From an uncultured Alphaproteobacteria bacterium (GTDB lineage Bacteria > Pseudomonadota > Alphaproteobacteria > Rhizobiales > Xanthobacteraceae): 64,000 bases of DNA. The notes under the pieces are model-generated. The model ran no database searches and was not told where the DNA came from. It saw only the letters and a list, made by a program, of their open reading frames with translations. Shown here one piece after another: positions 2,279-9,178 of this stretch. Each line of letters begins with the position of its first letter. Within the stretch, counting starts at the first letter, position 1. Made by a program: the position numbers and the translations under genes. The DNA is taken from NCBI GenBank assembly GCA_963748805.1, contig CAVVLH010000006.1, forward strand, positions 36,186-100,185, given 5' to 3'.

Positions 2279-2376
2279 GCCGATCAGGCTTTTACCATTC
2301 GCGACGGCACCCCGAGATGCTGAAAAGCGCCACAGCTCGGATGCTTCAGACCCCAGGTGGCGCGAAGGATCACGTC

Positions 2377-3675
2377 ATGCAGGTTGGCGGCAAAACGCAG
2401 AATCCAAATCGGCTGACCACGTACATCATGGTCAGCCTGTTCCTTGGCATCGCCGCGGGCTACGCGTGCAATACGCTCGCGAGCCCGGAGCAGGCCAAAG
2501 TCATCGCCGGATATTTCTCGATCGCGGCGGACATCTTTCTGCGAATGATCAAAATGATCATCGCACCGCTGGTGTTTGCCACGATCGTATCCGGAATTTC
2601 CAGCCTGGGGGCGAGCGGCGGCGCCGTCGGGCGTATCGCCGTCAAGGCATTGGCCTGGTTCATCACCGCATCGGTGATATCGCTGCTGGTCGGGCTGTTG
2701 CTCGCAAACGTGCTCCAGCCAGGCCATGGCCTTGGTCTGACCCTGCCCGAGGCGAATGCTACAACCAACGTTCAAACCGGCAGCCTGAACATCAAGGATT
2801 TCGCCGCTCACGTCTTCCCTATCAGCGTCGTGCAGGCGATGGCAGGCAACGAAGTGCTGCAAATTCTCGTCTTCTCGATGTTCTTCGGCTTCGCGCTGAG
2901 CGCCGTCAAGACGACGCTTGCCCCGGACATTGCAAAGTCGATCGATCAGATCGTTCCGGTCATGCTCAAGTTCACCGACTATGTCATGCGTTTCGCGCCA
3001 CTAGGCGTGTTCGCGGCAATGGCCGCGGTGATCACCACGCAGGGTGTAGGCGTTCTCGTCACTTACGGAAAGTTCGTCAGCGCCTTCTACTTCGGCCTCG
3101 CGGTTCTCTGGCTCATCATCATCTTCGCAGGCAGCATGGTTCTTGGCGGGGCCATCAAGCCTCTGCTTCGCCTGCTCCGACAGCCGATGATGATCGCCTT
3201 CTCGACCTCGAGCAGCGAGGCGGCATTCCCGAAGATGATCGAGCAGCTGATGAAGTTCGGCGTCTCCGAACGCATCACCGGTTTCGTCCTGCCGCTCGGC
3301 TACTCGTTCAATCTCGACGGCTCGATGATGTATCAGACGTTTGCGGCGCTGTTCGTAGCTCAAGCATTCGGCATCGAGATGCCGATCACGACCCAGATCG
3401 CAATGCTGCTTCTCTTGATGATTACCAGCAAGGGCATCGCCGGTGTGCCGCGCGCATCCCTGGTCGTGGCGGCGGCGACGCTTCCCACTTTTGGCCTGCC
3501 GGCCGGAGGCCTCGTCCTGCTGATCGGCATCGACGCCTTTCTGGATATGGGACGGACGATGACCAACGTCATCGGCAACGGTGTCGCGACCGCTGTCGTT
3601 GCGAAGTGGGAGAACGAGCTCAGTGAGCCTGTCGAGGAAGATGCCGAACTCCTGACAACGGCCGTCGCGGGATAG
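2377..3675 (+). CDS. Dicarboxylate/amino acid:cation symporter (DAACS, DctA/GltP-like)
   Basis: FLRMIKMIIAPLVF, AFSTSSSEAAFP, VLPLGYSFNLDGS and DMGRTMTNVIGN motifs; start could be 2317. Confidence 0.95.
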   Translation: MQVGGKTQNPNRLTTYIMVSLFLGIAAGYACNTLASPEQAKVIAGYFSIAADIFLRMIKMIIAPLVFATIVSGISSLGASGGAVGRIAVKALAWFITASVISLLVGLLLANVLQPGHGLGLTLPEANATTNVQTGSLNIKDFAAHVFPISVVQAMAGNEVLQILVFSMFFGFALSAVKTTLAPDIAKSIDQIVPVMLKFTDYVMRFAPLGVFAAMAAVITTQGVGVLVTYGKFVSAFYFGLAVLWLIIIFAGSMVLGGAIKPLLRLLRQPMMIAFSTSSSEAAFPKMIEQLMKFGVSERITGFVLPLGYSFNLDGSMMYQTFAALFVAQAFGIEMPITTQIAMLLLLMITSKGIAGVPRASLVVAAATLPTFGLPAGGLVLLIGIDAFLDMGRTMTNVIGNGVATAVVAKWENELSEPVEEDAELLTTAVAG

Positions 3676-3886: not shown

Positions 3887-4894
3887 ATGCGTGACACGAT
3901 GCGAAGGCGGCATTTCCTTGCGGGTGCCGCTGCGGCCACCATGACTTCGGGCTTCCGGAGCCGGCGCGCCTATGCTTCTGTCCAGCCGCAGGTCTTGCGG
4001 ATAGGCATCACCAATCCCCGGGATTCCCAATTCGGTGCCGGCGCGCTGGAATTCGCCAGCTACATCCAGCACAATTGCGGTGGCCGCCTGAGGGTCGAGT
4101 TGTACCCCGTGGGCGAAGCGGGTGGCGAACTGGAGATGTGCCAGGATCTCATCGCCGGTACACTTGAGATGGCGTTTGCATCGTCGGTGGTTTTTGCCAC
4201 GATCGCTCCAGAACTCAGCATCTTTGATATTCCCTTCCTGTTTCGCGATCTGGGCCACGCCCGCTCGGTGCTCGATGGCGAGATTGGCAAAGCAGCGCTG
4301 GCGCGGCTCGCGCCAACCGGTTTGGTCGGTCTCGCCTGGGGCGAAAACGGGCTTCGCCATCTCACAACCACCGACCGCGCCGTTCATCGGCCGGAAGACC
4401 TCAAGGGGCTGAAGCTTCGCGTGCCGCAATCCGAAGTGATGGTGGCAAGCTTCAAGGCGATCGGCGCGGCCGCGGGCTCGCTGCCCTTCCCTGAACTTTA
4501 CACAGCCCTGTCCTCCGGCGCATTCCAGGCCGAGGAAAATCCGATTGCCACCGTGCTTGCGGCGAATTTCGACAAGGTTCAGCACTATCTGTGCCTGACC
4601 GGACATGTTTACTCGCCGGCCGCCTTCCTTGTCTCAAAGCGGGTTTTCGAACGCCTTTCGCCGGAGGATCAAGACGCGTTCCGCGCCGCCGGCATCGCCG
4701 GAAGCAGGGCCAGCCGCGTCTATATCGATCGGGTCGAAAAGAGCGGCATTGAAGAGCTGCGCCGCCGCGGCATGAAGGTAATCGAGGATATCGACCGCCC
4801 GGCTTTCGCGGCCTCGCTCGCCAGCCTTGAACCCCAATTCCAGAAGCAGTTTGGCAAAGACAACATCGACGCCATTCGTGCGTTCGGCAAATGA
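3887..4894 (+). CDS. TRAP transporter substrate-binding protein (DctP family) with Tat signal
   Basis: RRRHFL twin-arginine leader; [33 protein letters not shown] motifs. Confidence 0.93.
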
Positions 4895-6909
4895 GGCAAC
4901 AACCGATGTCTTTGCTGTCTGTGGTAAACCGGATCAGCCTTAATGGCCGCCTGATCGGCGGTTTCGGACTTTTGATGGTGCTGATCGGAAGCACCTCGAT
5001 TTTCTATAATGTTCGCATTCGCGAGGTGCGGGACAACGTTGCGCGCATCGAGCGCGCGTCGGCGGCCACCGACACGGTGGGTGACTTTACCCGTCATCTC
5101 TTGCTGCTGCGGTCGATCGCCGTCGATTATTTCCGTTCCGGCTCGGCCGCGGACCGCGCACGGACGCTCGCGGCTTTCGAGCCGCTCGACAAATCCATCG
5201 CCGGGCTGAGCGAAGTCGCGGGCTCGCGCGGCGATCTTCTGCGCACCGGCCTCGCCAATTATCATGCCGCGTTCAGCAAACTGGACGAGGAAATCAAAAA
5301 GCGTCAGGCGGCGCTCCAGGCGATGAACGCCAGCGCCGCCCGGCTCACCAACACGTTGACGACGGTGACGCGTGACCTTGGAGCCGCGAACGAAGCGGCG
5401 CTCCCGGCCGCTCAACGGCTCGAACAGGCGTTCCAGGCGCTTCGCGCCGTCGCCTATCGCTATGCTGCAACACCATCCTCGATCGATCTCGATATCATCA
5501 CCGCGGAACGGGAAAGAGTCGTCAGGGAATTGGCCGAGGTGAAGGCGTTGCCTTCGGCCGATCCCGCGCTCGCCAAGATCATCGCGGCGCTGCCGGCGCA
5601 GGTCGAAAAATTGCTGGGTTACTCCGATCAGCTGGTCAGCATGGCGGCCTCGACGGAAGGGAGTTTTGCGGCTCTGGTCAATTCCGGGATCAAGCTCGGT
5701 GACGATGCCGAAGCCTTGCGCAGCGAAAACCAAACCAGCCGCAACACCGCGATTTCAACCGCAACCCGGATTGCCGAAGACGCTTCGACGGCCGGCTCGA
5801 TTGCGGCGGTAGCAGGCGAAGTCCTCGCCGTCATCCTGGCAGCCCTCATCACGATTTCGATCTCGACACTGATCAAGCGGATCACGCAAACGATGTCGAA
5901 GCTGGCGGCCGGCGATCTGAACGTCGAAATCGAGGGTGCCGAGCGCAGTGACCAGATCGGCAACATGGCGCGGGCCGTCGGCATCTTCAAGGCGAATGCC
6001 GTTCGGATTGCCGAGGTCGAAGCGGAGAAGAATCGCCTCGCGTCCCAGACCGAACAGGATCGCAAGGCCGGCTTGAGAGAGCTTGCCTCGCGGCTGGAGC
6101 GCGCGGTCAAGGACATCGCCGACGGCGTGAAGCATTCGGCCCAGAGAATGCACGATGGCGCGTCGACCATGAGCGGAGCCGCCGAGCGGACCAAGGCCCA
6201 GTCGAGCACCGTGTCGGCCGCATCCGAGCAGGCATCGATGAATGTTCAGACGGTGGCTTCCGCGGCCGAGGAATTATCGGCCTCGATCCGCGAGATCGGT
6301 CAACAGGCGCAAAGCTCGGCCACCGTCGCACGGCGCGCCGCCGAGCAGGCCGGCCAGACCACGACCACGATGGAACGGCTGTCCCAGGCCGCCGACCGCA
6401 TCGGTGAGGTGGTCAACCTGATCAACACCATCGCCGCGCAGACCAACCTGCTGGCACTCAACGCGACGATCGAAGCCGCGCGTGCGGGAGAGGCCGGCAG
6501 GGGCTTTGCCGTCGTCGCATCGGAAGTCAAAACGCTCGCCTCCCAGACCGCGCGCGCGACCGGAGATATCGCAGCCCAGATATCGTCGATCCAGAGCGAG
6601 ACCAAGGAGGCCGCCGCGGCCATCAAGGGCATCGAATCCGTCATCCTGGAAATCAACCACATCGCGACCGCGACCGCGAGCGCCGTCGAGGAACAGGGTG
6701 CGGCGACAAGCGAAATCGCACGCAATGTCCAGCGGGCTGCGCAGGGTACCGATGAGGTCTCCAGCAACATCGCAGGCGTGCTCGAGTCCGCAGCAAAAAC
6801 CGACGAGCATGCGCGCATCGCGCTGGAGAATTCCAACGAATTGTCCGATCAGGCAGACCGGCTCTGGCAAGCGGTCATCGGCTTCGTCGAAGACGTGAAG
6901 GCGGCCTGA
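4891..6909 (+). CDS. Methyl-accepting chemotaxis protein (2 TM, ~260-aa helical periplasmic domain, HAMP, signalling domain)
   Basis: [37 protein letters not shown] signature; HAMP (MSKLAAGDL...[10 protein letters not shown]); ATGA overlap with the upstream gene. Confidence 0.96.

Positions 6910-9178
<2,269 letters not shown>

Follow-up and report, generated by a model that had tools for sequence, protein, structure and literature searches.

A TRAP-type binding protein without a transporter is encoded beside a chemoreceptor and is a candidate ligand co-receptor of its helical bimodular sensor domain

The window analysed here is a stretch of 64,000 nt of contig C6 (110,941 bp), which belongs to a 5.76-Mb Bradyrhizobium-type assembly from a soil bacterium. 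Two adjacent open reading frames (ORFs) lie on its + strand at 3887–4894 (335 aa) and 4891–6909 (672 aa). The first, dctP, encodes a binding protein of the type that belongs to TRAP (tripartite ATP-independent periplasmic) transporters, and the second encodes an MCP (methyl-accepting chemotaxis protein). The pair is described here as a candidate two-protein periplasmic sensor. The original prediction, made from the sequence alone, had read the first product as a DctP-family protein exported by the twin-arginine translocation (Tat) pathway, with no dctQ or dctM nearby and with a stop codon that overlaps the MCP start in an ATGA. It had also given the MCP an all-helical periplasmic domain of about 260 residues, compared this in size to the helical bimodular (HBM) domain, inferred that the TRAP binding protein is a dedicated ligand co-receptor for chemotaxis, and named no well-characterised pair of a DctP-family protein and a chemoreceptor.

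The dctP product matched the Pfam DctP profile PF03480 (E value 7e-69; 232.7 bits against a cut-off of 23.4), NCBIfam TRAP_S1 (2.9e-61) and TIGR00787 (203.8 against a cut-off of 175.05). Reading of the N-terminus showed a twin-arginine motif, RRRHFL, followed by a hydrophobic stretch and then AYA. The arginines R7 and R8 are almost invariant among relatives in alignment A4, which comprises 14 sensor-linked DctPs. With this motif and the PF03480 match, the reading as a Tat-exported DctP-family protein held. The MCP matched both PF00672 (HAMP) and PF00015 (MCP signalling), and no Pfam match was obtained across its first ~320 residues. About 260 of these residues are flanked by two hydrophobic segments, which were read by eye as transmembrane.

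The predicted ATGA is literally present at 4891–4894, where an in-frame ATG of the MCP ORF overlaps the dctP stop, but its use as the start is improbable. The ATG within the ATGA of locus L002 is out of frame relative to the MCP, the dctP of locus L003 stops with TAA and the ATGA is missing there, and public gene calls for the MCP are mostly 667 aa long. The conserved start is therefore probably ATG 4906 (MSLLS...), 11 nt past the dctP stop. This short gap and the GAGG element listed in Table 1 fit a layout compatible with a single transcript and coupled translation. Genuine ATGA (4-nt) or 1-nt overlaps between dctP and the receptor gene are present in other lineages of the pair. A scan for promoters and terminators returned no signal above the shuffled background.

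Table 1. Features of the dctP–MCP pair in the window
Feature	Position	Strand	Basis
dctP, DctP-family (TRAP-type) periplasmic solute-binding protein without transporter, 335 aa	3887..4894	+	PF03480, closest solved chains, clade membership
Putative twin-arginine (Tat-type) signal peptide, dctP residues 1–30, end AYA	3887..3976	+	Sequence reading; cleavage site by the A-x-A rule
GAGG Shine-Dalgarno-like element over the dctP stop codon, 9 nt 5′ of ATG 4906	4893..4896	+	Sequence reading; L002 and L003 alike
Methyl-accepting chemotaxis protein; 667 aa if read from the conserved (probable) start; alternative in-frame ATG 4891	4906..6909	+	HAMP, MCPsignal; start by conservation
Predicted periplasmic helical bimodular (HBM-like) sensor domain, ~residues 35–295	5008..5790	+	AlphaFold2 model, fold matches, subfamily membership
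HAMP domain	5857..5985	+	PF00672 at 3.6e-06, residues 323–365 in the 672-aa reading
MCP signalling domain	6304..6804	+	PF00015 at 3.2e-32, residues 472–638 in the 672-aa reading

The genome survey showed that the pair is conserved. Apart from the source assembly, an orthologous receptor is encoded in 13 of 401 genomes from the genus. The sensor domains of the orthologues are 67–89% identical, and dctP lies directly upstream of the receptor gene in 13/13 of these Bradyrhizobium orthologues. Another Bradyrhizobium genome carries a very divergent second pair (L015/L029), in which DctP is 45% and the sensor domain 20% identical. A wider scan based on A4 covered one genome per species (185,579 species) and returned 456 stretches encoding relatives, of which the best 80 were taken with 6-kb flanks. 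At 77 of these 80 loci, a gene with the same sensor-domain family lies directly downstream of dctP on the same strand; because the loci were chosen by two peptide motifs from linked DctPs, this count covers motif-bearing DctPs and not all relatives. One of the three exceptions is truncated by the contig end, and the other two (L109 and L112) are taken up below. The pairing that the original prediction proposed to survey is thus present well outside the source assembly; its absence from other genomes would have refuted that prediction, which the survey instead supports.

DctPs outside this clade served as a control. The 20 closest of them (34–42% identical) were drawn from 400 genomes sampled evenly across the phylum. 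DctM was encoded within 1.5 kb of 19 of these 20, and the sensor domain was found beside none. The DctP–sensor adjacency is therefore far above chance, with 77/80 in the clade, 0/20 among the relatives linked to DctQM and 0/29 for the sister subfamily of the sensor. No third gene is conserved across the 80 loci, where no other family is common to more than 14, and the neighbourhood of the pair has no conserved transporter gene. The hosts comprise at least ten named genera, including Bradyrhizobium, Methylobacterium/Methylorubrum, Pseudolabrys, Aliidongia, Telmatospirillum, Azospirillum, Rhizobium, Roseicella and Rhodopila. Further hosts are other Acetobacteraceae, Beijerinckiaceae, two Syntrophobacteraceae metagenome-assembled genomes (MAGs) and one Lacipirellulaceae MAG.

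The assembly of the window holds 15 DctP matches and 11 DctM matches, the latter at 10 loci. None of the 11 DctM matches lies on contig C6. All 10 DctM loci adjoin a DctP of their own, and therefore no transporter is left over for the window's DctP. The 14 Bradyrhizobium loci had no DctM within flanks of 8–10 kb (0/14). A complete TRAP transporter (DctPQM) was found neither on C6 nor at the 80 clade loci, where DctM within 6 kb was counted at 0/80.

Some further dctP and dctM genes deserve mention in their own right. Two DctP genes of the same assembly, at G000:C99:23415-24251 and G000:C111:38843-39664 (L161 and L162), have no DctM or MCP signalling domain within ~8 kb; they are orphans of another kind than the window's. 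The DctM matches at G000:C80:32978-34433 come in two consecutive pieces (profile positions 1–257 and 219–411) beside two tandem DctP genes, which suggests a frameshifted or split dctM. The clade dctP is split into two reading frames in long-read MAGs, near residue 45 (L003/L027/L072, G026) or around residue 75 (L075). The split frames of L003/L027/L072 and L075 come from a sequencing error or else from an early frameshift in the binding protein.

The sensor domain of the MCP was placed solely by fold comparison, because its sequence search against the PDB gave no matches. AlphaFold2 was run with an alignment of 75 family members and returned an all-helical model of MCP residues 1–340, with six helices, transmembrane-length helices at both ends and a mean predicted local distance difference test score (pLDDT) of 95. 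This agrees with the all-helical domain predicted before. The model superposed on the sensor domain of McpS, which is helical bimodular, with a Z score of 19.7 and a root-mean-square deviation (rmsd) of 2.2 Å over 222 of 235 residues (TM-score 0.84 on the target). The values for the TorS sensor domain were Z 18.2 and 2.2 Å over 212 residues, and those for the TorS chain of the TorS–TorT complex were Z 17.1 and 2.5 Å over 214 residues. By the fold of this model, the domain is an HBM domain, bimodular with two stacked four-helix bundles and about equally close to McpS and TorS, so the earlier HBM-like guess was right at the level of fold. The Pfam HBM profile PF16591 gave no match to the window's sensor domain up to an E value of 10, and the best weak match was CHASE3 at 0.022. 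Clade member L120, of the same linked subfamily, matches PF16591 with 41.3 bits (cut-off 29.8; 1.6e-10).

Phylogenetic analysis separated the linked proteins from their relatives on both sides of the pair. The linked DctPs form one clade (Shimodaira–Hasegawa-like approximate likelihood ratio test, SH-aLRT, 99) when compared with the 20 relatives linked to DctQM and with paralogues from the source genome. The sensor tree divides 75 DctP-linked domains from 29 unlinked ones by a long branch with a support of 100, and residues Y119, R133, R171 and D194 (667-aa numbering) are conserved solely in the linked subfamily. Three sub-clades of 13, 28 and 34 rows recur in both trees. The trees have 35 of 72 bipartitions in common, and their path distances are correlated with a Mantel r of 0.91, a value reached by 0/2000 permutations. 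Two Methylobacterium genomes carry two pairs each (L080/L091 and L083/L108), and in either tree the halves of these pairs are split between the same two sub-clades. Duplication and divergence have therefore affected the pair as one unit.

The sensor-domain family is larger than its DctP-linked part. In a search of 1.84 billion proteins, the sensor-domain profile matched 237 cluster representatives, whose outputs include MCP, kinase and GGDEF-EAL, and the family occurs in 99 of 401 genomes of the bacterial family containing Bradyrhizobium. The source genome itself encodes cheA/cheW and about 22 MCPs. A second one of these MCPs has the same sensor-domain family (G000:C1:172025-172885, 4.8e-32); it groups with the DctP-less subfamily, and no DctP is encoded within 10 kb of it.

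The partners of the clade DctPs are mostly plain MCPs. Three are PAS-GGDEF-EAL proteins (L116, L124 and L137), one is a hybrid histidine kinase (L132), two are MCP-PilZ fusions (L126 and L131), and two are MCPs with multiple HAMP/PAS domains (L090 and L127). Since GGDEF-EAL proteins and a hybrid kinase are served by the same pair as well, what DctP goes with is the periplasmic HBM domain and not chemotaxis as such.

The two fusion receptors, L126 (4250-6577) and L131 (7034-9340), carry the PilZ domain at the C-terminus. From this domain content, they could also read cyclic di-GMP.

The closest solved chains to DctP are 4pdh, 4p9k, 4nq8 and 4pdd (E values 1e-80 to 1e-71), which presumably carry erythronate or pantoate. 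The alignment with 4pdh covers DctP residues 37–333, nearly the complete mature length. Residues E81, R157, R178, F201 and N218 are invariant in A4. Matched by spacing and motif context, they have the same spacing as acidic-76, Arg152, Arg173, aromatic-196 and Asn213 of 4P47. The ligand site of the 4P47 group consists of an acidic residue, two arginines, an aromatic residue and an asparagine, and its structures hold pantoate, erythronate or sugar acids (PMC11668362). Because of this correspondence of the five site residues, the DctP ligand is likely a small hydroxy-carboxylic acid. The five ligand-contact residues are invariant despite divergence down to 45% identity, a pattern that points to selection on ligand binding.

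The genes around the pair are variable. Upstream on the same strand are an IclR-type regulator (100–906), a class-V aminotransferase (1073–2278) and a DctA/GltP-type symporter (2317–3675), the last of which ends 211 nt before dctP. We considered this DctA-like carboxylate symporter gene as a conserved third partner and rejected it. Among the 13 orthologous loci, only L017 and L019 keep ydeP and dctA, with dctA ~5–6 kb from dctP; the other 11 have no dctA in flanks of ~8–10 kb, and the 80-locus survey likewise showed no third gene. Downstream, a YdeP/FdhF-like molybdoenzyme ORF (6910–8967, − strand) converges on the pair. It ends at 6910 and the MCP stop ends at 6909; the two genes abut without a spacer, which leaves no room for separate terminators.

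We consider it probable that DctP is the dedicated ligand co-receptor of the chemoreceptor's HBM domain, and we infer the physical docking itself. The two genes would form a self-contained sensory unit. DctP would be exported to the periplasm by the Tat pathway, capture a small hydroxy-carboxylic acid through the usual TRAP Arg/Arg/Asn site, and pass no ligand to a DctQM membrane transporter. It would instead dock on the bimodular periplasmic domain of the receptor encoded 11 nt downstream. Either this docking or, as in TorT–TorS, a change that the ligand induces in a pre-formed complex may shift the signalling state of the receptor. The HBM domain would then signal through HAMP to the Che pathway, and CheA activity and swimming would be biased; the sign of this response is, like the docking, what we infer.

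Several observations weigh against this co-receptor model. Clade members without the two peptide motifs fall outside the 80 loci. The clade DctPs of L109 and L112 have no sensor-domain gene within 6 kb. Among the best 29 loci of the search at the level of the bacterial family, 28 have no DctP upstream of the receptor, and dependence of the whole sensor-domain family on DctP was rejected on this ground. The upstream genes of these DctP-less receptors are unrelated (CoA transferase, ribonucleotide reductase, cation efflux protein). The G650 receptor (L160, G650:C41:166000-185000) is nested in the linked sensor subfamily and lacks a DctP within 8 kb, possibly by secondary loss or relocation of its partner. 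The congruence of the DctP and sensor trees is partly expected from common species history; this is not the whole explanation, because the paralogous Methylobacterium pairs sort concordantly. As a separate observation, the dctP of L112 is followed by a 357-aa ORF with no Pfam match.

Carboxylates can also bind to the HBM fold itself, malate and succinate to McpS for example, and the McpS structures 2yfa/2yfb are the top fold matches of the sensor model (Z 19.7). The HBM domain might thus bind its ligand directly, with DctP merely co-expressed as a periplasmic buffer or scavenger of that compound or as a feeder of a distant transporter; uptake and taxis would then be co-regulated with no physical contact between the two proteins. 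The sister sensor subfamily works without an adjacent binding protein, and the symporter gene upstream of dctP would also suit such an arrangement. We regard this explanation as unlikely. Co-regulation alone leaves unexplained why DctQM accompanies none of the 80 clade DctPs and 19 of the 20 relatives. The pair is kept when the output switches to GGDEF-EAL or kinase, all major clades are common to both trees, within-genome paralogue pairs included, and dctA is distant from or missing at the orthologous loci.

It is conceivable in principle that one of the 10 DctM loci of the genome, or another transporter encoded elsewhere, shares the window's DctP, which would then both transport and signal like MBP–Tar or PstS–CtpL. 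The well-studied E. coli and Pseudomonas pairs of binding protein and chemoreceptor all use transport-associated binding proteins (PMC8050422), in favour of a dual role. Such a role is nonetheless quite improbable for the window's DctP, since no DctM locus is orphan and each adjoins a DctP of its own, the linked DctPs stand in a clade apart from the DctQM-linked ones, and the 80 loci have no conserved transporter gene. Conserved adjacency and co-evolution would fit any obligate partner, including a ligand-independent accessory (a stabiliser or a CpxP-like inhibitor) with a vestigial solute site. The invariance of the five canonical ligand-contact residues in so divergent a clade makes this very improbable.

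Taken with the co-receptor model, the data suggest a wider history, which we hold to be fairly likely. A whole clade of TRAP binding proteins would have abandoned transport and taken on ligand capture as the obligate partner in a two-protein periplasmic sensor, whose other half would be a dedicated HBM subfamily. The module would be plugged into chemoreceptors, histidine kinases and cyclic di-GMP enzymes, mostly in Alphaproteobacteria and in a few hosts outside that class. With one input module behind three types of output, the pair lends itself to studies of how different cytoplasmic machines are coupled to a single periplasmic signal. About two dozen systems are known to sense indirectly through binding proteins, a mode regarded as widespread. 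The pair looks like an undescribed route for sensing an organic acid. If the model is true, this would be the first TRAP-dependent chemoreceptor, and DctP would be the first member of its family among binding-protein-activated receptors besides B. subtilis DctB. Taxis in response to sugar acids or hydroxy acids would then be a further behaviour of soil and plant-associated Alphaproteobacteria. The pair is a clean, testable case, with no transport job to confound the genetics and a predictable ligand class, and its cultured carriers include Methylobacterium, Rhizobium oryzicola and Roseicella aquatilis. For annotation, a DctP with the two clade motifs and a downstream HBM receptor would be called a sensor and not a transporter.

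A 2021 review lists pairs of binding proteins and receptors and assigns the DctP (PF03480) family to no binding protein among them (PMC8050422). Reviews of binding-protein-dependent signalling contained no TRAP-dependent chemoreceptor, and the reviews and full-text literature searched described no DctP-family/chemoreceptor pair, in line with the original prediction. The nearest solved sequences to the window's DctP, the DctQM-linked 4PDH, 4P9K, 4NQ8 and 4PDD, have the carboxylate-binding Arg/Arg/Asn triad that is also found in it, and they differ from it in the transporter that adjoins nearly all DctPs sampled outside the clade and none within it. SatE of Treponema denticola is likewise an orphan binding protein without membrane components that is linked to an MCP, and a role in signalling rather than transport was proposed for it from genomics; SatE, however, is an ABC (ATP-binding cassette)-type sialic-acid binder and is confined to a few Treponema species (PMC8461474). 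McpS of Pseudomonas putida (PDB 2YFA/2YFB) is the best fold match of the sensor and a carboxylate chemoreceptor, but it binds malate and succinate directly without a binding protein, and the sequence identity is 17–19%.

The B. subtilis DctB-DctS-DctA system for C4-dicarboxylates has a TRAP-type protein that is a co-sensor for a membrane receptor rather than a partner of DctQM (PMC12718363, PMC6978683 citing Graf et al. 2014). DctA is required in B. subtilis, whereas dctA is not conserved with the window's pair. The window too has a DctA-like gene beside dctP, and its layout of DctA, binding protein and sensor recalls the Bacillus system. The receptors differ in that DctS is a histidine kinase and not an MCP. 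For sensing, DctS has a domain of the PAS/Cache type and not an HBM domain.

PstS–CtpL, which mediates phosphate chemotaxis in Pseudomonas aeruginosa, is closer on the receptor side: CtpL is an HBM-type chemoreceptor activated by the ligand-loaded binding protein and not by free ligand (PMC8050422). PstS is ABC-type and also serves the Pst transporter, and the binding-protein genes of E. coli and P. aeruginosa sit with transporter genes (PMC8050422); the window's binding protein is TRAP-type, transporter-less and encoded beside the receptor. In TorT–TorS, which senses trimethylamine N-oxide (TMAO) in E. coli and Vibrio parahaemolyticus (PDB 3O1H), a transporter-less binding protein docks on a bimodular four-helix-bundle sensor, as is proposed here. 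TorT is marked 'SPa', as opposed to 'Ta' for MBP-type proteins, in the table of PMC8050422, and we tentatively read this mark as signalling-only. TorT is nevertheless a Peripla_BP_1 protein and not a DctP/TRAP protein, the output of TorS is a hybrid kinase and not an MCP, and the ligand is TMAO and not a carboxylate. TorT–TorS and PstS–CtpL are precedents for a binding protein acting on an HBM-type fold, and DctB-DctS-DctA for a TRAP-type co-sensor.

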